Shown here in pieces: positions 19,822-56,568 of a DNA stretch of 64,000 nucleotides. Within the stretch, counting starts at the first letter, position 1, and every line of letters starts with the position of its first letter. The position numbers were made by a program, and so were the translations under genes. The stretch is from Candidatus Uhrbacteria bacterium (GTDB lineage Bacteria > Patescibacteriota > Patescibacteriia > UBA9934 > GWF2-40-263). The notes below the pieces were generated by a model. The model saw nothing but the letters and a program-made list of their open reading frames with translations, did no database searches and had not been told where the DNA came from. The DNA is taken from positions 173,987-237,986 of the forward strand of contig JAPLZK010000003.1 of the NCBI GenBank assembly GCA_026395055.1. Direction: 5' to 3'.

Positions 19822-19935
19822 TTACCCTTGACGTTGTTTATGTTTAGGATTTTTACAAATGACAACCACACGTCCTTTTCGGCGTGTGACACTGCAATCT
19901 TTACAAATTTTTTTTGCGGATGCTCGAACTTTCAT
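19822..19935 (-). CDS. rpmJ: 50S ribosomal protein L36
   Basis: Hand translation gives [37 protein letters not shown] (37 aa). It is below the 60-aa ORF-track cutoff and sits in the conserved position between infA and rpsM. Confidence 0.85.
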
Positions 19936-19981
19936 AATCTATAAACTTCACCGATGTTGCTCGATGAAGTTTGGAATCTTA

Positions 19982-20203
19982 TTAGAAACGATAAACGACA
20001 CGACCCTTTGTAAGGTCGTACGGACTAATTTCCACTTTCACGTCATCTCCAGGCAAAATGCGAATACGAAACTTGCGCATTTTTCCAGAAAGATAACCTG
20101 TGATGGTTTGTCCATTTTCCAGTTTCACTTTGAAATTTGCAGATGGTAGAAGTTCTTCTACCGTGCCTCGCATTTCAATAAAATCTTTTGTATCCTGACT
20201 CAT
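19982..20203 (-). CDS. infA: Translation initiation factor IF-1
   Basis: 73 aa S1-like OB fold ([42 protein letters not shown]). Confidence 0.95.
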
Positions 20204-20278
20204 AGGTTCTTTGGTTCAGAAAATGCTATCAGATTTTGCTGTAAATCGCAAGCAAAAATAGATTTCTGAGGCGCCGGT

Positions 20279-20307
20279 ATTTTATGTTATTTGCTAAATT
20301 GTGTCAA
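20279..20307 (-). promoter_or_regulatory. Consensus sigma70 promoter for the infA-rpmJ-rpsM-rpsK-rpsD-rpoA-rplQ-rplM-rpsI operon: -35 TTGACA (20302..20307), 17-nt spacer, -10 TAAAAT (20279..20284), minus strand
   Basis: Read from the reverse complement TTGACAcaatttagcaaataacaTAAAAT, about 75 nt upstream of the infA ATG. Confidence 0.6.
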
Positions 20308-20361
20308 GAAATCAACCGGGGATAACCTTGAGCAACATATTTCAGCTAAATTAAGGTGTGT

Positions 20362-22245
20362 TTACGTGAGAACAGCCTTGATTCTTCTGAGTCCAGATCC
20401 GATCGATTCTTCCTTCTGAATCTCAAATTTTCCTAGTTCGGCGGTGTTTGATACATGAGGCCCTCCACAAACCTCTTTTGAGAAGGCGTCTCCCATAGCT
20501 TCATCACCAACGAAATAGACTTTTACCTTATCTCCAACTTCTGCATACTTATCCGTAAATAGTCCGATTGCCCCTCGCGCTTTTGCTTCTTCAAGCGTCA
20601 GCATTTCGAAGTGAACCGGTAACTTCTTTGAAATTGCCTCATTAACCAGCCCTTCAACCTGTTTAATCTGATCATCCGTGAGTCTTTCTGGATACGGAAA
20701 GTCGAATCGGAGGCGTTCTGGGGTGATGTTGCTTCCCTTTTGGACGACCATATCACCAAGAACCTGTCTAAGCGACTGATGAAGTAAGTGAGTTGCTGTG
20801 TGGTATTTAACGCTCATTTCTGACGTATCTGCAAGACCACCCTTGAACTTCTGCTCTGAACCAGCTCGAGAAAGTGCTTGATGCTTTTCTTTTTCGACTT
20901 TAAACGTTTCCATATCGACCGTAAACCCATTCTCTGTCGCGAGCTCTTGTGTCAGCTCAACAGGAAACCCATAAGATTGAACGAGATCAAATGCATCCAT
21001 TCCTGATATCTGTTTATTACTTTCAACAGTCAGGAGCTCAACGAATTTCTTCATTCCCTGTTTCAACGTTTGTTGAAATTTCTTTTCCTCCTTCGCGAGC
21101 TCGGCAAGAACCCTATCTCGAGAAGATGCGAGATTCGGATATGCTTCCGAATAAGCTTCGATGAATGTTGCACCGATCTGAGCACAAACATCTTCTGTGA
21201 TATTCAGCCAATGTGCGAAACGAACGGAACGACGAATTAATCTACGTACAAAATATCCCTGATCTTTATTCGATGGATTAACACCATCACCAATAAGAAA
21301 TGTAGCAGCTCGAAGGTGATCCAAGATCACACGGAATTCATCCGTGTGTGTTTCGTAGGTTCTTCCACTGAGTTCTTCTAGCTTTTGAATAGCGGATTGA
21401 AAAACATCTACACGAAAAATATCTGGATCCCCATTCACCGCCGCGCACACACGTTCAAGTCCACCTCCAAAATCCACGTTTCTTTGTTTAAGCTCCTCAA
21501 AACCTGTTTCTGTCTTCACGTATTGCATGAACACATTGTTTCCAATTTCAACGAAACGCCCACAGTCACAGTTCACATGACATGGTTCGTTTTTCCAATT
21601 TGAAATTTCATGCAAGTTTCGTTCCGCACCAAAATCCCAAAACATTTCTGTGTCTGGACCACCGGGTTCTCCAACAGGCATGTTTGATGGCACGCCAGTT
21701 CTACTCCACCAGTTTTTTTTTTCTGGTTAATAAAAAATACGTTCACCAGATTTCATTCCGTCTTGTTCCACATTTTCACCAATCGCCGCATCAATCCCCT
21801 TTGACGCAAATAATTTTTGCCACAATGCTGCAGACTCTTCATCTCTGGGAATATTCAAATCCGTATTTCCTCGAAATACAGTCACATATAAATTCTTTGG
21901 ATCAAGTCCAAGATTCGTCGTCAAAAATTCAAACATCCATGTGATTTGCTCATTTTTGAAATAATCTCCAAGCGACCAGTTGCCGAGCATTTCAAAAAAC
22001 GTTGTGTGACGATTATCTCCCACTTCATCAATGTCTTGTGAACGAAAACATTTTTGAGAATCTGCAATACGAACACCACGAGGATGTGCCTCGCCGAGTA
22101 AATAAGAAACCATTGGTTGCATTCCGGATCCGGTAAAAAGGGTCGTTGGATCATTTTCAGGGATCAACAATGCGGATGGAAGAATGGCATGACCATGATC
22201 AGCAAAAAACTTCAGGTACTGTTCGCGAATTTCAGAAATCGTCAT
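20362..22245 (-). CDS. alaS: Alanine--tRNA ligase lacking the C-Ala domain; the reading frame is interrupted by one in-frame TAA (21727..21729) next to an A10 homopolymer
   Basis: The two ORF-track pieces (21727..22284 and 20362..21693) are in the same frame, separated by TAA plus 11 sense codons (PEKKNWWSRTG) that match the conserved AlaRS NFW-MGDTGPCGPC region. The catalytic and editing domains are present. The start was moved to MTISEIREQYLKFF at 22245. Confidence 0.75.
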
Positions 22246-22299
22246 AATGCGTGGATTGTACAAAGGAAAGAGATGAAAAGTCAAAAAGGAAAAAACCTT

Positions 22300-34788: not shown

Positions 34789-37293
34789 TCAATCGAATTT
34801 TACGCTTTGTCCTACGTGCAACTTTCCAGATGTTGGTTGTTCAGGTGATTTCTCTGCGGGTTTTTCTACTGGTACCTCGACCGGTTTCGTATCAGGCGGT
34901 GGCACAACAATAGGTTCTGTGACAATCGGAGCGTGTGGAACTTCAACCCTTGGCTCTTGTCGCTCTGGTCGTTTTTGTTCTTGAAGAGATTTTAAGGAAA
35001 TAGTTTGTCCGGTTTGTGATAGTTGTGTGGTGATTTCACGGCGAACTTCTTGTGCTCGTGTATCAGAAATACGTTCAGATGCTCGAGGTGTTCCAGGTGA
35101 ATGAGCACTGGACTGCGGAGATTCTAAGCCAGTTCCTGTTTTCTTTTTGCGTTTACGCTTGCGTTTGCGTTTTTCTCCTTCGAGGACGGGGGCAGCCGAA
35201 TGTGGCGCTTGAGGCTCATTCGTTGTTTGTGAAGGAACGCGCGACAAATTCCCCATCGGTCGAACGGGTGTTGTTATGGGCGGAGACACTTGACCCCGCG
35301 CTGGAACGAGCGGTTGCGATTGCGGCTTTGATTCTTGAGGAACTCGAATTACAGGTTCGCTAGGCGTGTTTACAACAACAGGTTTTTGTTCAACACGAAC
35401 AACAGGCACTGGAATAATTGGTGCCTCGACAACAAGTTTTGGTTCTGGTTGAACAGGAGTTGGTTGTGATAATTCTGGTTTTGGAACAGATTCGACGACA
35501 GGTTGCGGTTTTGGCGCAACAACCACGGGTTCGGATCTTCTTTGTTCCATTGGTTGCGCGGTTGCGACGGGTTTTTGTTCCGGAATCTTTTCGTTCATCT
35601 GAGGTTCCTCTACAACAACCACCTCTACAGGCTTTGGCATGAGTGTTGAAAGAGAAATGGTTGGTTCGTCTGGTAACTTATGATCTTCAACTTCCTGAAC
35701 TTCCGATGAACGCATCTCACGAGGAGATGCTTCTTTGACAGGAACCTTTGGTGGAAGATTGCGTGTATCTGCTGGCTTACCCCCCGTTTTTCCTCCACGA
35801 TTATTCTTTTCCTCACGCACAATCTCAATACAATCTTCACAGTAAATTGGACGTGAGCGATCAAGTTCTACAGGCAAAACCATTTTTTTGCCGCAACGCG
35901 AACAATCATATTCAAATTTTGGCTTCTTTGCGTCCTTTGCTGCCACCTTGTCTGTTTTCTTTTTTTCTTCCGCTTCTGCAAGCATGGTATCAACATCCAT
36001 GTTTCCCATTCCGCTCCACGTCAAAATTTGTTCTTCAATAAATCCACGTTCTTTTGCGTAACGTTCTCGAGAAACTTTAATGACACGCTCTTCTGAATCT
36101 GTCTTTTGAGAAATTGGCGGAAGCGTGATGGCAGAAAACGGCTGACTTGTTACTCCGTTGATGAGCAACTTTAAGTACACGTTATATTTTGGAAGATTGA
36201 TAATGTCTTCTGGTAAAAAACGTGGGGCAAATTCTGTTTCCATGTACTTTGCGTCCGGAGAACCCACACGAAACGAAATAATTGTTCCGACGTTACCAAA
36301 AACCGCTTCACGCACTTCATCTGTAAGCTGCGCAATGTACTGGTGAGCAATGGTTAAACACAAACGATACTTACGTGCCTCAGACAAAATCCCAGCAAAA
36401 GAATCCACAGCAAAGTTTTGGAACTCATCAACGTACAAGTAAAAGTCCATACGGTCTTTTTCTTGCATGTCTACACGTTCCATGGCGGACAATTGCAATT
36501 TCGTAATCAACAGTCCTCCAAGTAAACGAGAACTATCTTCTCCAATACGTCCCTTGGAAAGGTTAACGATGAAAATCTTTCCAGAGTCCATGATTTCACG
36601 AATGTTGATACTGGATTTCACCTGCGCAACAATGTTTCTGATCACAGAAGCAGACAAAAACTGTCCAATCTTGTTTTGGATTGGAGCCACAGCCTCCTGC
36701 GCGTATTTTTCATTATACGAAGCAAACTCTCTCAACCAGAATTGTTTCACCACAGGATCCGTCACATTCGAAACAATACGCTTGCGATAATCTGCATCTG
36801 ACAACATGCGGTTGATTCCAAGCAGCGTTGATCCTTGGTTATCAAGCAATGCGAGAATCGTGTTGTTCAAAATGTACTCCATACGGGACGACCATTGGTC
36901 TTCCCAAATCTTTTTGAAAACTCCCATCATTCCACTTGCGACCAAGTGTTTATGTCGTTCAGAGACGGCCTCCAGGATATTAAATCCAACCGGATATTCC
37001 GCGTCAGATGGATTGAAGTACACAACATCGTTAATGCGCCAGCTTGGAATGTAATTGATGAGCTTTTCTGCCGTGTCTCCGTGAGGATCCACGTAACAAC
37101 AACCGTGTCCTGCGTAAATATCAGAAAGGGTGAGGTTCTCAAGGAGAACCGTCTTTCCCATACCTGTTTTTCCAATCACATACACATGTCGACGGCGATC
37201 GTCGGTTTTGATTCCAAATTTCGTCATCGCATTTCGGAAGTTTGTCTTCGCAAAATAGTTGACCTCGTTTTCATGTTCGTGATTGTAGCCCAT
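34789..37293 (-). CDS. VirD4/TraD/HerA-like (FtsK-HerA superfamily, T4 coupling-protein-like) ATPase with a C-terminal zinc ribbon and a long disordered Pro/Val/Glu-rich tail
   Basis: Walker A VIGKTGMGKT, Walker B LYVDEFQNF, and a TrwB/TraD-like C-terminal AAD motif (VFGNVGTIISFRVGSPDAKYMETEF). Zinc ribbon CSRCGKK...CEDC at about aa 460-480. A tail of roughly 350 aa rich in P/V/E/K with a KRKRKRKRKKK run. Confidence 0.7.
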   Translation of the reverse strand: MGYNHEHENEVNYFAKTNFRNAMTKFGIKTDDRRRHVYVIGKTGMGKTVLLENLTLSDIYAGHGCCYVDPHGDTAEKLINYIPSWRINDVVYFNPSDAEYPVGFNILEAVSERHKHLVASGMMGVFKKIWEDQWSSRMEYILNNTILALLDNQGSTLLGINRMLSDADYRKRIVSNVTDPVVKQFWLREFASYNEKYAQEAVAPIQNKIGQFLSASVIRNIVAQVKSSINIREIMDSGKIFIVNLSKGRIGEDSSRLLGGLLITKLQLSAMERVDMQEKDRMDFYLYVDEFQNFAVDSFAGILSEARKYRLCLTIAHQYIAQLTDEVREAVFGNVGTIISFRVGSPDAKYMETEFAPRFLPEDIINLPKYNVYLKLLINGVTSQPFSAITLPPISQKTDSEERVIKVSRERYAKERGFIEEQILTWSGMGNMDVDTMLAEAEEKKKTDKVAAKDAKKPKFEYDCSRCGKKMVLPVELDRSRPIYCEDCIEIVREEKNNRGGKTGGKPADTRNLPPKVPVKEASPREMRSSEVQEVEDHKLPDEPTISLSTLMPKPVEVVVVEEPQMNEKIPEQKPVATAQPMEQRRSEPVVVAPKPQPVVESVPKPELSQPTPVQPEPKLVVEAPIIPVPVVRVEQKPVVVNTPSEPVIRVPQESKPQSQPLVPARGQVSPPITTPVRPMGNLSRVPSQTTNEPQAPHSAAPVLEGEKRKRKRKRKKKTGTGLESPQSSAHSPGTPRASERISDTRAQEVRREITTQLSQTGQTISLKSLQEQKRPERQEPRVEVPHAPIVTEPIVVPPPDTKPVEVPVEKPAEKSPEQPTSGKLHVGQSVKFD

Positions 37294-37308
37294 AACGTAA
37301 GGTGAGGA

Positions 37309-38934
37309 TCAAACAGGAAGATCAGGTGGGGTAAATAATTCTTCGTCAGATGCGTCTGCGGGAGACGTATCCCCGAAACGACCTTTTGGTAAAAAGGCCT
37401 CTGCGTCTTCATGTTCTATGTCTGTAGGTGCTTTCAAGTGTGGAAGTGTTTCCGGTAATGGTTCTTTTGAAGTGACATATGTTCCTGCAAGACGAGATTC
37501 CGCAGATTCGTGATGTTCCATTGGCATTCCGCCTGGAAGAGGAAATTCATTATCCCCCGCTCCAGGCAACGTGTTCTCCAAGAATGTTGTTGGCAATCCA
37601 ACAGGAGGTTCTGCACGACGTGCTTCTGATTTCTTGATGAGTGGAGCTTTGATACTGATCGTTGGAAAATGCCAAAGCGTTGCCAACTCTTCTGCATTCA
37701 AATAAACAGGATTCGCCCCAATTCCCCAACTGCGCCCTTGAAACGCCTTCATGAGGATTGTTTGTTTTTTTTCATAATCCCACTTCTGCCAGAAGTAATC
37801 ATCCTTTGGAACAGAGGGACCATGCATCTTAAATGAATTCAAGTTCAAGTGAGAATACTGGTTCAAAATTCCCTTAATGATGGTTACACGATCTCCTTTT
37901 TTATAAACTGCCTTTTGCGCGCAATACACAATACGAATCTTCACGGCATGTCCAACCTTTATGGTTTTCTTCATGATGGCCTTTGCTTCATCTTGTTGTG
38001 CGGGACCAAGTTTAAATGCTTTCCAGGGATCTGCTTCTTTTGTTGCTTCTGACGCCATTCCAAAAAATGGCGCGAGATCGATTTCCGTAGCGTGAGCAAT
38101 TAATTCAAATGGTAATTTAAAAACAGTTTGTGCTGCAGCAACAAGGTCATTCTTCTTTGCCGCCTTATCTTCAACACCGAACGTTTTGTTTACATGTGCG
38201 ATTCCCGCCTTTTTCCATTCATGACCGGTTGGCTGAATAACCATCTGAAACCAAAAATGCTCCCCCGGTTTCATTTTAGACATTTGTTCGAGCGTGTAAC
38301 CAAGAGGATCTTTAATTTCTCCTGTCATTTGGTCTTCAAAATCCACATACGTTCGAATGGGAAAATGAGATTCCTTGTCTAACGTAAATTCCGCACCCCA
38401 CATGTCATATTTCTCATCGGGAAAGAGTTTTGGAACTTTTGTGACGTAATCATCAACCTCATTCATTTCCGCATCAGGATACTGCGCGTAAATACCTGCC
38501 TCAATGACGTCTCGGAATTTTGCTTGTGTACGAATAATAAACTGCATGTACCCTTCTTCTGAAACAATTTCAAAAGAAAACGTTGGCATGATTTTTCCAT
38601 CAAACCATTTTTCCTTAAATGTAGGACTAGATTTTGCCGCGTACAGTGCCGCAAATAAGTTTTCAAGCGCCTTTGGGGTTTGTTCTGTCATGGACGGAAC
38701 GTCAACCGCAAGACAAATATATTTTTGTTTTGCCGCGAACACTCCTTGTCGTTCTGCAAGCCACAATTCTGAAAAACCCCACAGAAGTGTTGTGAGGACA
38801 GGGATCCAACCAAACCAGACCAAGAGATCAAAAAAAATGACATCAATCGGTTGATTGAGGAAAGAAAGTGAAATCATTGGGACAGATGATTGCGCGGATT
38901 GTTGGATGATCTGAATCGCAAGCATGGGAAACAT
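37309..38934 (-). CDS. Hypothetical membrane protein (N-terminal TM hairpin plus about 450-aa soluble domain and an acidic Pro-rich C-terminus), co-operonic with the VirD4-like ATPase
   Basis: TM segments (VIFFDLLVWFGWIPVLTTLLWGF); no recognisable domain; 15-nt gap to the ATPase gene. Confidence 0.55.
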   Translation of the reverse strand: MFPMLAIQIIQQSAQSSVPMISLSFLNQPIDVIFFDLLVWFGWIPVLTTLLWGFSELWLAERQGVFAAKQKYICLAVDVPSMTEQTPKALENLFAALYAAKSSPTFKEKWFDGKIMPTFSFEIVSEEGYMQFIIRTQAKFRDVIEAGIYAQYPDAEMNEVDDYVTKVPKLFPDEKYDMWGAEFTLDKESHFPIRTYVDFEDQMTGEIKDPLGYTLEQMSKMKPGEHFWFQMVIQPTGHEWKKAGIAHVNKTFGVEDKAAKKNDLVAAAQTVFKLPFELIAHATEIDLAPFFGMASEATKEADPWKAFKLGPAQQDEAKAIMKKTIKVGHAVKIRIVYCAQKAVYKKGDRVTIIKGILNQYSHLNLNSFKMHGPSVPKDDYFWQKWDYEKKQTILMKAFQGRSWGIGANPVYLNAEELATLWHFPTISIKAPLIKKSEARRAEPPVGLPTTFLENTLPGAGDNEFPLPGGMPMEHHESAESRLAGTYVTSKEPLPETLPHLKAPTDIEHEDAEAFLPKGRFGDTSPADASDEELFTPPDLPV

Positions 38935-48121: not shown

Positions 48122-49726
48122 TTACTTACAACCCGGTGTCCATTTATGTGTGCAGGTGTTCCCAATACAGGCATCAACCGTGCACCCCTGACCATCGTCG
48201 TTGCATACACCCTCTTGCGGGTTTGCATATGGGAGGAAAACACATCCTTTCTTTGCTTCATCACACGCGTCCGACGTGCACCCGTTTCCATCACTACACA
48301 CGTATGCGTCATGAACGGAACACATCGAATCTTTGCACTTGTCGTTGATGGTACACAGGAGTCCATCGTCGCATTTCAGGGCGTTTGGAACGTGCGTACA
48401 GAGCATGCTTGCACAGACATCTGTTGTGCAAACGTTTCCGTCGTCCAAACATTTTGTGCCATCCGGTTCTTGCGGGTGCATGCATTTGCCGTCCGCGCAT
48501 TTGTCTTGCGTACAGGCATTACCATCATCCGTGCATTTGCCGTCAGATGACGCAGCGTGTTTGCAACCCGTGAATGGATCACACGAATCCGTTGTGCACG
48601 GATCGTTGTCGTTGCAATTCAACGTACTTCCGCCGATGCATGTCCCCGCAGCGCACTGTGAAAGTGCGGTGCAAATATTTGCGTCATCACAGGCAGAACT
48701 GGTGAGAGGTGTATGTTTGCATCCACCATCAGTGTTGCAGACATCTGTCGTACAGCTATTGCCGTCGTCGCAGAGATCTTCATCGGTCTTGCCGTCACAA
48801 TCGTCATCCTTTCCATTACAGGTTTCGGGTGACGCATCCGGCGCATTGCAGATGGCTTTGCCGTCGCTGCAGGCAATGAACTTTCCAAGGCATGTGCCGA
48901 ATTCGTTCTTCTTGTCACATTGAACACCAAATGTATTCTCGTCGATGTTGTCCGTCTTTGCATCGCAGTTGTCGTCTTTCCCGTTACAGATTTCCTGTTC
49001 AGGGACTTGACCGACACATCCAGACAATCCATTCACCGTACACGTACGAGTACCCGCACAAGACCCAAAAGGATTTGTGTTGGCACAGGCCGTAGAAAAA
49101 CCTTTCTGGATGGCAAAGGGCGAACACGCACATGTTGCGTTTCCAGAAGGGAGACACTGTGAGCTTCCAGCCCCGCTCTTTGGATCCGTGACGAATTTGC
49201 ACGTATATCCTTTGGGGCAATCATCGCTCACTGGGTCACAGGTCACTCCACAAAAACTCCCCGCGTCACCATGACTGATGCACGCATTGTTCGAGTCTTT
49301 GGCAAAGTTGCATTGATCGTTTGTCGTGCACGGATTACACAGGTTCAACAAGCGAGAAACACAGACGAACTGAACATCTGTTCCACCACCTACAACCTGT
49401 CCGCATGCGTATCCACTTTGACACGACTGTACACAGATCATCGAGCACTTTTTCCCGTTCTCTGTTTGTAAACAAAGACCGGAATCACAATCATCTGAAT
49501 GTTCACACGCGTAGCCAAACTGACCCGGCGTGATCATGACATCACTTTGCGTTGAGACAAGTACGTCCGTGAACACATCTGCCGTGAGTACCGCATCGAG
49601 TTTTGCATCTCCCGCAACGTCTGCGTTCGATGTGTCCCCATTGGACGGCGCTAAGATCTGATCAGTACCACATCCAATCGATGTGCAGATGAGGCAAAAA
49701 AGACAGATTTTTTGAGAGAGCGTCAT
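48122..49726 (-). CDS. Cysteine-rich tandem-repeat lipoprotein (about 16 copies of the C-D-D-G-N-x-C-T-x-D-x-C motif)
   Basis: Signal/lipobox-like N-terminus (MTLSQKICLFCLICTSIGCG) with an AGGAGG ribosome-binding site 8 nt upstream of the ATG at 49726. Repeated DGNxCTxDxC units such as DGNACTQDKCADGKC and DGNVCTTDVCASMLC. Confidence 0.7.
   Translation of the reverse strand: MTLSQKICLFCLICTSIGCGTDQILAPSNGDTSNADVAGDAKLDAVLTADVFTDVLVSTQSDVMITPGQFGYACEHSDDCDSGLCLQTENGKKCSMICVQSCQSGYACGQVVGGGTDVQFVCVSRLLNLCNPCTTNDQCNFAKDSNNACISHGDAGSFCGVTCDPVSDDCPKGYTCKFVTDPKSGAGSSQCLPSGNATCACSPFAIQKGFSTACANTNPFGSCAGTRTCTVNGLSGCVGQVPEQEICNGKDDNCDAKTDNIDENTFGVQCDKKNEFGTCLGKFIACSDGKAICNAPDASPETCNGKDDDCDGKTDEDLCDDGNSCTTDVCNTDGGCKHTPLTSSACDDANICTALSQCAAGTCIGGSTLNCNDNDPCTTDSCDPFTGCKHAASSDGKCTDDGNACTQDKCADGKCMHPQEPDGTKCLDDGNVCTTDVCASMLCTHVPNALKCDDGLLCTINDKCKDSMCSVHDAYVCSDGNGCTSDACDEAKKGCVFLPYANPQEGVCNDDGQGCTVDACIGNTCTHKWTPGCK
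48150..49250 (-). repeat. Coding tandem repeat array (units of about 78-84 nt, Cys-rich motif) inside the lipoprotein gene
   Basis: Periodic recurrence of the DGNxCTxDxC peptide motif. Confidence 0.55.
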
Positions 49727-49843
49727 CAAGGAAACCTCCTGGCATGGGCAAGCAACATGCCCAGAGATCTTTTCAGAAAAAAATGAAATTGTCAATAGTT
49801 TAGATAAAAAAATCCTCCTTTCAGGTGAAAGAAGGAAGAGGTG

Positions 49844-51388
49844 TCAGGGGACGCAATTACCAATCGGGACGAAAACACATTTGCCTGTGGTTGGATTGCA
49901 CGAATCGGAGGTGCACTTGTTTTGGTCGTCGCACACAAGCGGAGGCTTGCTAATGCAGACACTGTTGTTGCACTTGTCACCGGTTGTGCACGCATCGCCA
50001 TCGTCGCACGGATCGTTGTTGACGTTTGTGAAGATGCATCCCGTTTTTGGATTACAGATGTCATCCGTACACGAGTTACCGTCATCACACTTGTAAACCT
50101 TACCTACACATGTTGTTGCGGAGCACTCACTCGCAAGCGTACATGCGTCGCCGTCGTCGCAGGAGTAACCCTGGTTGGCCGTGTGGTTACACACGCCAAT
50201 GGCTGGGTCACAACTATCGTTCGTACAGACATTATTGTCATTACAAGTCTGCGACAGTCCTTTGCAATTGTTGCCGTAACAGATGTCGCCGATTGTACAG
50301 GCATTGTTGTCATTGCACGGATCCTTGTCGTGAACCGTGAACTGACAGCCTGTTGCCGCAATACACGAATCTTCCGTGCAATCATTTCCGTCCGCGCACT
50401 GCTTCTGCTTGCCAATGCAAACACCAAGCGAGCACTGATCGTCCGTGGTGCACAGACTATTGTCACTACAAGAAAACACGTTTGGAATAGGCGTATGAAC
50501 GCACACACCCGTCCCGGAATCACACGAGTCTGCCGTGCAGACATTATTGTCGTTGCAATTCTTCTGGTTTCCTGAGACACACTGACTCTTTTGACACGTG
50601 TCATTCTGCGTACAAAAGTCCCCGTCGTTGCAATTCGCCCCGTCTGCTTGGGGTGTCGAATAACATCCAGCAACCTTGTCACACAGATCCGCCGTACACG
50701 CGTTCCCGTCATTGCACGTAATTGGCGTTCCGGCACAAGCACCCTTTGCGCACTGATCCGGTGCCGTACAGGCATTGCCGTCATCACACGGATCGTTCGT
50801 GAGCTTTTCATGAACGCACTGGTTGATTTCGTTACAGTAGTCCTTTGTGCATTGATCTGCATCATCACAGTCCACGGCCTTGCCGAGACAGTTGCCGTTC
50901 AGACAATGGTCGTTGTTCGTGCAGACGCTTCCGTCGTCGCATGGGATGTCGATGTTCACGTGCGAGCATCCTGCGATCTTGTCGCAAGGATCAAGCGTGC
51001 AAGGTTTGCCATCTGAACAGTCGACTCCCTTTGGACCAACACATGTTCCGATTGCAGAACAAACATCGCCCGTCGTACAGACATCGCCATCAGAACACGC
51101 GGTACCTTGTGGCGAAGGCTGGTGATGACACTCACCCGTTCCCGGGTCGCACCAATCTTGCTGACAAGGAGTCTTCGTGTCGCACTGTTCGTGCGTCACA
51201 CAGACAAATACATCTGCCGCAATTTCCGGCCCAGTGTCTTGTGGGACATCCGGCGGAAGATCGGGCGAACCCGAGTCCATCGAAACATCACCAGCAACTT
51301 CAGGAGGTGCAGAAACAATGGTCGAATCCGAGCACGCCGATACATAAACACAACCAACGATCAAAAGGGCTTTCGTCAAACGATTCAC
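49844..51388 (-). CDS. Cysteine-rich tandem-repeat lipoprotein, paralog of the adjacent gene (about 16 repeats)
   Basis: Lipoprotein signal (LLIVGCVY). Repeats include DGDVCTTGDVC, DGKPCTLDPCD, DGNACTAPDQC, DGNACTADLCD, DNNVCTADSCD, DGNDCTEDSC and DGNSCTDDICN. A GGAGG site lies upstream. Confidence 0.7.
   Translation of the reverse strand: MNRLTKALLIVGCVYVSACSDSTIVSAPPEVAGDVSMDSGSPDLPPDVPQDTGPEIAADVFVCVTHEQCDTKTPCQQDWCDPGTGECHHQPSPQGTACSDGDVCTTGDVCSAIGTCVGPKGVDCSDGKPCTLDPCDKIAGCSHVNIDIPCDDGSVCTNNDHCLNGNCLGKAVDCDDADQCTKDYCNEINQCVHEKLTNDPCDDGNACTAPDQCAKGACAGTPITCNDGNACTADLCDKVAGCYSTPQADGANCNDGDFCTQNDTCQKSQCVSGNQKNCNDNNVCTADSCDSGTGVCVHTPIPNVFSCSDNSLCTTDDQCSLGVCIGKQKQCADGNDCTEDSCIAATGCQFTVHDKDPCNDNNACTIGDICYGNNCKGLSQTCNDNNVCTNDSCDPAIGVCNHTANQGYSCDDGDACTLASECSATTCVGKVYKCDDGNSCTDDICNPKTGCIFTNVNNDPCDDGDACTTGDKCNNSVCISKPPLVCDDQNKCTSDSCNPTTGKCVFVPIGNCVP
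49900..51150 (-). repeat. Coding tandem repeat array (about 26-28-aa Cys-rich units)
   Basis: Periodic DGNxCTxDxC motif. Confidence 0.55.
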
Positions 51389-53959: not shown

Positions 53960-55249
53960 TTAGTGTCTGAGAAGGTCTGTTTCATCTACCGTAAGACAGA
54001 CGATGGATTCTGGAAGGACAGAGGAATAACCAATGCCGCCGCCTGAAGCCCAGTGAAGTCCCCAGGCGATCGGTACGGACTGCAAGGAGCGATCATACAT
54101 GACGGGGTAACAGAGTTCACCGTCGTCTGTGATCGTTGCTGCAATTTCTCCATCTGCATCCACAAGGAATTCTCGCAGGAACGTTCCTGTGGGAAATTCC
54201 CGTTGTGTGTCTTGCGTGATGATCGATTGTTTCTCTTGGCCACTTGCATCTTGCGTCGTGATCCGAGCGCCAAAGCATGGACCTGAAAGTGCCCACACAA
54301 GATCCGCTTGGTTCATGGAGAATTCTCCCTCATGAATCAATTGGCCATTCAAGTAAAGTGCGCGTCGGGATGGGTCTGAACGATCAGGCCTCACGAGCCA
54401 TGCAAGCGAACGCTCGCTTGGCGAAACCCAGAGCTGCTCAATATCCCCCATCCAAGTTTCCGCAAGCGGAAACGTAAGTGTGTTCGTAGAACCAACCACA
54501 CGCAATCGTGAACCGGACTCTGTGCGCGTGGCAAGAACGTACTGATTTTGCACGTATGCAAGTGCCACTGGAACTTCACCTTTCGGATGAAGCACGGGGA
54601 ACCAATCAACGAAGCCTCTCGCTCCAAATCGGTAGCGATAAGAATTTCCGTCGATCTGTTCCAAAAACAGGAAGCTTCCGTCTGAAACGGCTGTTGCAGT
54701 CGCAAGATCCTCGACGGGGAGCACACCGTGCTCGGTCCACACGTGTTTTGCATTGGAATCTTCTGTTCCGATTCCAAGCAAGAACATGCCATGTGGCAAA
54801 CGGCAGACGCGATGAAGCGCCGCAAAGGGTCGCACAAGTTTCAGGCGAGGACGTCCAACCTTCAACTCGTACACTCCTCGAACCAACTGCCCAAACGGCA
54901 AACCCCACACCAACAAGCGATCTGTCCCAACGTGAAGGATGCGTGTTTCCACACGCTCACCATTCTCATGGGAACAAAATCGCGACGAAGCCATGCGCTC
55001 AAAATTGTGCGCAACCCGCTCCGTAGAATCTGTCACACGCGCAATAAGAGCAACGCGATGACCATCTTTACTCACAACCAGGCGATCCGTTGCTACAAGC
55101 TCGGAGAGCTTGTTTGCGTCAAATTGTCCTGGAAGGGCAAAAATTTGGTGAATGACTCCAAGGAGTCCTATTCGCCTCATTTCGTATGGTGGTTGTAACG
55201 GTCGGTGTGGTTGCATGTTTCCTCGATCCCTCTCATACAAGAGGTTCAC
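53960..55249 (-). CDS. Hypothetical protein (Arg-rich, locally GC-rich), directly upstream of murC
   Basis: Long ORF with protein-like composition and no recognised domain; the exact start is uncertain. Confidence 0.45.
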
Positions 55250-55273
55250 TAAACCTAGCGATAATTCATGAGA

Positions 55274-55302
55274 TTGTCAACCAGTTCCTTGTCACGTACA
55301 AT
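55274..55302 (+). promoter_or_regulatory. Sigma70-type promoter for glyA: -35 TTGTCA (55274..55279), 17-nt spacer, -10 TACAAT (55297..55302)
   Basis: Hexamers read directly; about 20 nt upstream of the glyA ATG. Confidence 0.55.
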
Positions 55303-55323
55303 GCGCGTACAATTATCTTTCCT

Positions 55324-56568
55324 ATGTTTATAGCAAAACAAGACCCCGAGGTCGCGCACGCCCTACAAAAAGAACTCATCCGTGAAGAAGAAGGATTAGA
55401 AATGATCCCCTCTGAAAACTTTGTTTCTCGAGCGGTTCTTGAAGCTCTTGGGTCAGTCGCAACAAACAAATACGCAGAAGGATTGCCAGGCAAACGCTAC
55501 TACGGCGGTTGTCAGGAGATCGACGTAATCGAACAACTCGCGATCAATCGCGCAAAACAACTTTTTGGCGCGGAGCATGTAAACGTTCAGTCGTTATCTG
55601 GCGCACCCGCGAACCTCGCGGCTTATTCTGCTGTTCTCTCACCTGGCGATACCGTCCTCGGTATGGATCTTTCACACGGAGGTCACCTTACGCACGGACA
55701 CCCTGTAACCTTCTCGGCAAAGATTTACAACTTCATTCGATATAAAACAACTGCAGCAGGACTGATCGATTACGAGGAGATCGAGCGCATGGCGCGCGAA
55801 CATAAACCAAAGCTCATCCTTGTCGGTTACTCGGCGTATTCCCGAGAAATTGATTATGCACGTATTAAAGCAATCGCAGATGAGGTTGGTGCACTCACCA
55901 TGGCAGACATCGCCCACATTGCCGGTCTTATCGCCGGAGGAGAAATGAATAACCCGGTCCCCTTGTTCGATATTGTAACAACGACGACACACAAAACACT
56001 CCGCGGACCTCGTGGTGGAATGATTATGTGTAAGGCAATTCTCGCAAAGGCGATCGACAAAGCGGTCTTTCCTGGTTTGCAAGGAGGTCCGCATGAGAAC
56101 GTCATTGCTGCAAAGGCTGTCGCGTTTCTAGAAGCACTCCAACCAGAATTTAAATCGTACGCAAGACAAATTCGTTTGAATGCAAAAGTCCTCGAACAAG
56201 AATTGAGTTCAAAGGGTTATCGCTTAATGTTCGGTGGAACAGATAACCATTTACTTCTCATTGATGTCTCCACAAAAAACGTGACAGGAGGTGAAGCTGA
56301 AAAAGCCCTCGACGCCGTTGGTATCACGGTGAATAAAAATATGATTCCTGACGATCCACGTTCTCCGTTCGATCCTTCTGGAATTCGACTCGGAACTCCA
56401 GCACTTACATCTCGAGGAATGAAAGAAGCAGAAATGAAGCTCATCGCTACATGGATTGATGAAGCAATTATGCATCGCTTGGACGAAGCACATCTCGAGA
56501 AACTTCGAACAGACGTAAAAGAACTAACGAAACGATTTCCACTTTACCCAGAACTCGCATACGAATAA
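55324..56568 (+). CDS. glyA: Serine hydroxymethyltransferase
   Basis: PLP-lysine region [14 protein letters not shown] and typical SHMT N-terminus ([19 protein letters not shown]). The start was moved to [10 protein letters not shown] at 55324. Confidence 0.95.

Follow-up and report, generated by a model that had tools for sequence, protein, structure and literature searches.

The stretch of DNA analysed here (the window, 64 kb in length) carries on its minus strand, from 22245 to 20362, an alaS gene for a short-form alanine--tRNA ligase (AlaRS) that is intact apart from a single in-frame TAA at 21729..21727. Translation from the ATG at 22245 yields a typical AlaRS N-terminus that runs to GERIFY and into this TAA; in the same frame, the codons PEKKNWWSRTG then lead to a GTG at 21693 and on to RRIKAVLT, where a second TAA (20364..20362) ends the downstream ORF at the point where the C-termini of homologous proteins lie. 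The features of the locus are the following.

22255..22284, minus strand: promoter-like site (TTGACT, 18 nt spacer, TACAAT) 5' of the alaS ATG, a consensus match only
20362..22245, minus strand: alaS, short-form alanine--tRNA ligase, 627 codons with the in-frame TAA counted as codon 173
21727..22245, minus strand: N-terminal ORF of 172 aa plus TAA, starting at ATG 22245 and matching AlaRS catalytic core profile positions 1-147
21727..21729, minus strand: in-frame TAA in a conserved Tyr column; its third base, 21727, is variant (A in the window, T in contig L055, described below)
21694..21726, minus strand: the 11 codons PEKKNWWSRTG, which follow the stop and precede the earliest codon at which translation could restart; they include the invariant KNWWSR block
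21713..21722, minus strand: A10 run within GAA AAA AAA AAC (E-K-K-N); base 21718 is variant (A in the window, G in L055)
20362..21693, minus strand: downstream ORF of 443 aa with a GTG start, holding the remaining catalytic, the tRNA-recognition and the editing (tRNA_SAD) domains

On the minus strand, the region of the stop reads GAA CGT ATT TTT TAT TAA CCA GAA AAA AAA AAC TGG TGG AGT AGA ACT GGC, which translates as E R I F Y * P E K K N W W S R T G. The stop thus falls inside the catalytic core, within the interval from motif 2 to motif 3, with the RHTTFFEMLGNWS block before it and the VDFGGGLER block after it, and it is one third-base change away from TAY. It is separated by CCAG, i.e. 4 nt, from the A10 run (21722..21713; T10 on the plus strand), which is the only homopolymer of at least 9 bases in the 64 kb and which lies next to the only gene-splitting in-frame stop found there. 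No promoter-like site was found ahead of the downstream alaS ORF. The sequence-only reading of this DNA had described an in-frame TAA between two ORFs in one frame, with the 11 codons PEKKNWWSRTG between them, and all of this is confirmed once the minus-strand orientation is allowed for.

The joined AlaRS protein, with X at the position of the stop, was used as a query and matched thousands of AlaRS sequences, and 120 homologues were listed and aligned. Among the matches listed, the best are 85% identical, exactly 627 aa long and uninterrupted, and belong to Patescibacteria, the named relatives being Candidatus Uhrbacteria and Magasanikbacteria. The nearest GTDB species-representative loci come from Uhrbacteria MAGs (86-87% identity; a 100% match was not among them), and every one of them has a single continuous alaS ORF. 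Many GTDB records named 'uncultured Gammaproteobacteria bacterium' (MAG TPA_asm, SRP..._co...) also hold a Patescibacteria-type short alaS, 61-83% identical (loci L005, L007, L010, L012 and L017 are examples), and the names on these records look like placeholders or mislabels.

Profile searches recovered the short-form AlaRS domain order, that is PF01411 (class II catalytic and tRNA-recognition) followed by the editing-domain core PF07973: PF01411 matches at profile positions 1-140 in the N-terminal fragment and at 153-447 in the remainder, and PF07973 (tRNA_SAD) at residues 401-449 of the remainder. NCBIfam NF002436, a family of 595 positions, is covered at 1-147 by the upstream ORF and at 158-592 by the remainder, with fragment scores of 197 and 490 that add up to 687 bits, as compared with 700 bits for the intact homologue P0001, so that the two parts together give a full-length NF002436 match with no C-Ala extension. 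The missing C-Ala domain had been remarked on alongside the stop. Its absence from the window alaS holds, since PF01411 and PF07973 were the only domains found in the profile search; as an anomaly, however, it falls away, because C-Ala is likewise absent from all 120 listed homologues (605-775 aa, mostly 620-650 aa) and its absence is the norm for this Patescibacteria (Uhrbacteria-like) clade and for the curated family NF002436. In domain order, in its 627 codons, in its C-terminus and in its lack of C-Ala, the window copy is therefore like the NF002436 / PRK01584 short-form AlaRS, from which it differs by a TAA in place of Tyr173, a difference that the L055 allele does not share.

The site of the stop is one of strong conservation. 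Of the 120 aligned homologues, 113 have Tyr and 7 have Phe in this column, the K-N-W-W-S-R block that follows it is invariant in all 120, and the Tyr codon is TAT or TAC in each of the 45 relatives' loci; a stop at this site was seen in none of the 120 homologous proteins and in none of the 45 loci. The window alaS itself keeps all 134 invariant columns and 236 of the 238 columns that are conserved at 95% or above, has no indels relative to P0001 and ends at the same C-terminal column as its relatives. The earlier description of a protein that is essentially intact apart from one stop is borne out by these counts. For a decaying pseudogene, several lesions and relaxed constraint would be expected, and with the stop as the sole lesion, 134 of 134 invariant columns retained and no indels against P0001, we rejected this explanation. 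The suggestion of very recent pseudogenisation thus survives in one part, since a recent or segregating nonsense variant remains a candidate, and not in the other, as there is no decay beyond the single stop.

As a substitute for a read pile-up, exact-protein look-ups in Logan can be used, and in runs SRR20698643 and SRR20698644 they found contigs with practically the same sequence as the window. Contig L055 (Logan SRR20698643_160802, 2351 nt) equals window 22172..19822 at 2349 of its 2351 bases, in a comparison of alleles between assembled contigs. Its only two differences lie at window position 21727, where a T gives TAT (Tyr), and at 21718, where a G gives AAG (Lys). L055 therefore reads TAT CCA GAA AAG AAA AAC, the pattern that is found in the relatives, and has neither the stop nor the A10 run; its product is a continuous 602-residue partial AlaRS containing ERIFYYPEKKNWW. 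The single continuous ORF that is absent from the window, owing to the TAA at codon 173, is accordingly present in a contig that is 99.9% identical to it, and an intact alaS allele exists in data from the same study. The sequence-only reading had named a sense codon in the reads as the observation that would count against its account, and as far as assemblies allow, a sense codon is what was found, in the TAT and continuous ORF of the SRR20698643 contig.

The second run is informative in another way. Contig L002 from SRR20698644 is 100% identical to the window and ends at 21728, one base short of the variant 21727. Such an end is what a branch in a de Bruijn graph would produce where the next base disagrees, and we estimate that a contig would end at such a base by chance at roughly 1 position in several thousand. 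A Logan contig that spans the site with the TAA allele was not found by exact look-ups of the downstream ORF (with the N-termini PEKK..., MPVG... and GTG as M), and no JGI metagenome contig matched in exact-pattern scans of this region. A short-query protein search from 21728 to 21478 gave no 100% identical fragment, its matches being limited to unrelated AlaRS pieces, fragmentary or frameshifted, in other assemblies. Public metagenome protein sets hold many short AlaRS pieces on long contigs (P0121-P0172), some of them ending in frameshift-derived tails, as in P0153, so that interrupted alaS calls often arise as by-products of assembly and are not peculiar to this locus. In another study, a related strain or species was seen with ~92-93% DNA identity across alaS-infA-rpmJ-rpsM (L054 from SRR22388063 and L056 from SRR22388280), and both of these contigs stop short of the Tyr173 site.

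Across all Logan contigs, 47.3 kb were aligned to the window, covering 36.9 kb of it, with six differences in total. Four of these are synonymous third-position changes in secA and secD, and the other two are the alaS pair, which holds the only non-synonymous change in the aligned ~37 kb. The three secA differences (46297, 46276 and 46255) are between the window and SRR20698644 contig L058, at synonymous third-position sites spaced by exactly 21 nt; at secD 40317, L058 again differs from the window (synonymous) and SRR20698643 contig L059 agrees with it. It follows that at least two haplotypes exist in the population; relative to the Logan assemblies of both runs, the window is a mosaic. The exact look-up for secA matched only the SRR20698644 contig, and that for window 55186-56568 had no match on record.

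Taken together, the stop is most likely an assembly- or haplotype-specific single-base lesion of an ordinary short-form gene, and unusual decoding is unsupported. Our leading explanation, to which we give a probability of roughly 0.6, is that the stop arose, at an A-rich site, as an error of the library, the sequencing or the consensus and involves no special decoding. The organism would then have an ordinary, single-copy, short-form alaS in which the true codon 173 is TAT (Tyr) and E-K-K-N is encoded as GAA AAG AAA AAC. The window carries a local variant in which T is replaced by A at 21727 and, 9 nt away, G by A at 21718; jointly these two changes create both the TAA and the A10 run. The source may be an error made by the polymerase or in the library and propagated through duplicate reads; it may also be a miscall specific to the sequence, or a consensus or path wrongly chosen at low coverage in an A-rich, low-complexity stretch, and the cell would make its full-length AlaRS from the TAT allele. 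By comparison with L055, the lesion is a substitution rather than a change in homopolymer length, with the A10 run belonging to the same two-base variant. An error at the homopolymer, as had been proposed, thus remains the leading idea as regards error, and is set aside as regards a change in run length, the lesion being a pair of substitutions. We also considered a pair of indels, one in the T6 and one in the A10 run, that would compensate each other, and rejected it, as L055 and the relatives align gap-free and all flanking codons match.

AlaRS is essential and is normally encoded by a single-copy gene, and a lethal nonsense allele should therefore not reach a frequency at which it assembles. 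Together with the fact that both changes go to A, at the most extreme low-complexity spot of the window and in a gene that is otherwise pristine, this leads us to infer that an error, rather than a real variant at minority frequency, lies behind the TAA haplotype. The case resembles known consensus and haplotype errors and strain-variant path choices in metagenome assembly, in that a two-base lesion lies in a low-complexity A-rich stretch, the sibling run, assembled independently, differs at precisely these two positions, and a further contig breaks there; it differs from the usual assembly error in being a pair of substitutions rather than a homopolymer-length change. Three points speak against error. 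From the break of L002 at 21728 it follows that several SRR20698644 reads carry the A allele or at least some heterogeneity, which would be unexpected from a random error; two linked miscalls are unusual for a short-read consensus; and the genuine microdiversity of this population, including the three clustered synonymous secA SNPs, makes a real linked variant possible.

Such a variant would be a real segregating nonsense allele, a reading that we hold as tentative and less likely than an error: a sub-lineage would carry TAT to TAA together with AAG to AAA, and the allele would be recent and deleterious, picked up by the assembler while being purged. It could have arisen through one multi-nucleotide mutation or through a nonsense mutation on top of an existing synonymous variant, with no mechanism behind the allele itself. 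The data of the same study appear to hold both haplotypes, real strain-level SNPs occur elsewhere in the window, some of them clustered, and the lack of any other decay in alaS fits a very recent event. Against this, a null allele of an essential single-copy aminoacyl-tRNA synthetase (aaRS) should be lethal and would be expected neither to leave solid k-mers nor to win an assembly path; the other four observed differences are all synonymous; and at ~1 SNP per several kb, two independent SNPs within 10 nt are improbable. The sequence context offers a weak hint of a template-directed change, since the A at 21727 extends by one pair an inverted repeat, from CCAG(N10)CTGG to ACCAG(N10)CTGGT (21708..21727, minus strand). 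The resulting hairpin is weak, however (-3.2 as against -2.1 kcal/mol), and its stability is no better than that of shuffled sequence (z ~0), and we therefore set aside a quasi-palindrome or hairpin origin as evidence; the extension of the repeat is probably a coincidence.

The remaining explanations accept the stop as real and differ in how the cell might cope with it. With regard to decoding, TAA ends 34 of the 54 long non-overlapping ORFs of the window (TGA ends 11 and TAG 9) and is the normal, preferred terminator in this genome. With this usage, and because TAA also ends alaS itself, at the homologous C-terminus, a reassignment of TAA to sense is excluded. All long same-frame neighbouring ORF pairs in the 64-kb window were listed, and those checked proved to be distinct genes, from different families or separate paralogues, leaving alaS as the only gene in the window that is split by a stop; the other genes with in-frame TAA that would be expected if the code were altered are not seen there. 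Neither tRNA genes nor Rfam families were found within the window.

Frameshifting or transcriptional slippage on the A10 run fares no better, and the reading in which TAA is reassigned or the run is used for recoding, supported only by a stop that lies in frame and close to A10, has a probability close to nil and is refuted within the window. Transcriptional slippage on poly(A) tracts is known to rescue frameshifted genes in endosymbionts, and programmed frameshifting is likewise known; the alaS locus shares with these cases a long A-run in an essential gene of a small-genome bacterium. It differs in that there is no frameshift to rescue: the stop lies 5' of the run and both ORFs are already in one frame, and slippage therefore cannot restore alaS. 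The run is also without conservation, being missing from the 45 relatives and from the intact SRR20698643 allele. In the E-K-K-N codons of all 45 relatives' loci the As are broken by at least one G, with longest A-runs of 2 to 8 bases, most often 5, and with more than 8 in none of them. Both reassignment and slippage had been among the possibilities raised from the sequence, and neither withstands these observations.

Readthrough of the stop is improbable in our view, in the form in which the stop is real and tolerated because a near-cognate tRNA-Tyr (or a tRNA for Gln or Lys) reads UAA-C usefully, giving functional readthrough in a slow-growing symbiont. Its more specific version, in which the TAA and A10 haplotype belongs to a genuine, viable Uhrbacteria-like lineage whose tRNA-Tyr reads UAA-C and restores Tyr at a level that is enough for a very slow-growing episymbiont, is slightly less probable still. 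tRNA-Tyr is a known near-cognate reader of UAA, and the stop lies exactly at the Tyr column of a gene that is otherwise intact, in an allele that several reads may carry. Bacteria, however, read through UAA at a basal level of ~1e-4 to 1e-3, which is far too low for an aaRS, and UAA is recognised by both RF1 and RF2 as well as being the terminator that this genome prefers. The conserved stop and context that would be looked for in programmed readthrough are lacking at the levels of protein (0/120) and locus (0/45), and the 99.9% identical copy has TAT. A search for a stimulatory RNA structure gave as its best candidate a 5-bp hairpin of -3.2 kcal/mol, with z ~0 against shuffled sequence and no Rfam match, and the suggestion of programmed readthrough is thus not supported.

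It is also conceivable, if highly improbable, that the two ORFs encode a split enzyme in the style of Nanoarchaeum equitans, with a 172-aa N-terminal fragment and a C-terminal fragment re-initiated at GTG 21693 or ATG 21681. GTG 21693 is preceded at 10 nt by a GGAG, and the split AlaRS of N. equitans is functional (PMC11392972), so that the window shares with that system a two-ORF AlaRS in a reduced-genome symbiont. The N. equitans enzyme, however, is split at about E. coli residue 368, after the catalytic core, and its alpha subunit (~E. coli residues 1-368) is the whole of that core, the two parts being separate and complete genes (PMC11392972). The window break, by comparison, is at residue 173, inside the core in the interval between motif 2 and motif 3, and would leave untranslated 11 codons with the invariant KNWWSR block; the break is unconserved, the homologues are all unsplit at this point, and the contig of the sibling run is uninterrupted. 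The GGAG, for its part, is merely the codons for the conserved W-W-S. A split at a domain boundary with all conserved residues encoded is thus not what the window alaS has.

A stop that was truly decoded within an essential aaRS gene would be a sign of recoding in bacteria of the candidate phyla radiation (Patescibacteria), and it is for this reason that the distinction matters. The alaS case cautions that a lone in-frame stop in a MAG contig, above all where the sequence is A-rich and of low complexity, needs independent assemblies or reads before recoding is claimed.

Two further regions of the window may be recorded. At 34789..38934 (minus strand), a TrwB/TraG-like type IV coupling protein of 834 aa adjoins a 541-aa protein with a DUF8128 match on record, and the two may form a conjugation or DNA-uptake module. 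Further along, at 48122..49795 and 49844..51388 (minus strand), two neighbouring genes encode cysteine-rich proteins (557 and 514 aa) with Dicty_CTDC repeats (PF00526), in a segment from 48 to 60 kb with a G+C of 0.47-0.51, compared with ~0.42-0.46 elsewhere in the window. These two ORFs are in the same frame, with a TGA (49846) and 16 codons between them, and what follows the TGA does not resemble the repeats, so that the two have the look of paralogues rather than of one interrupted gene.
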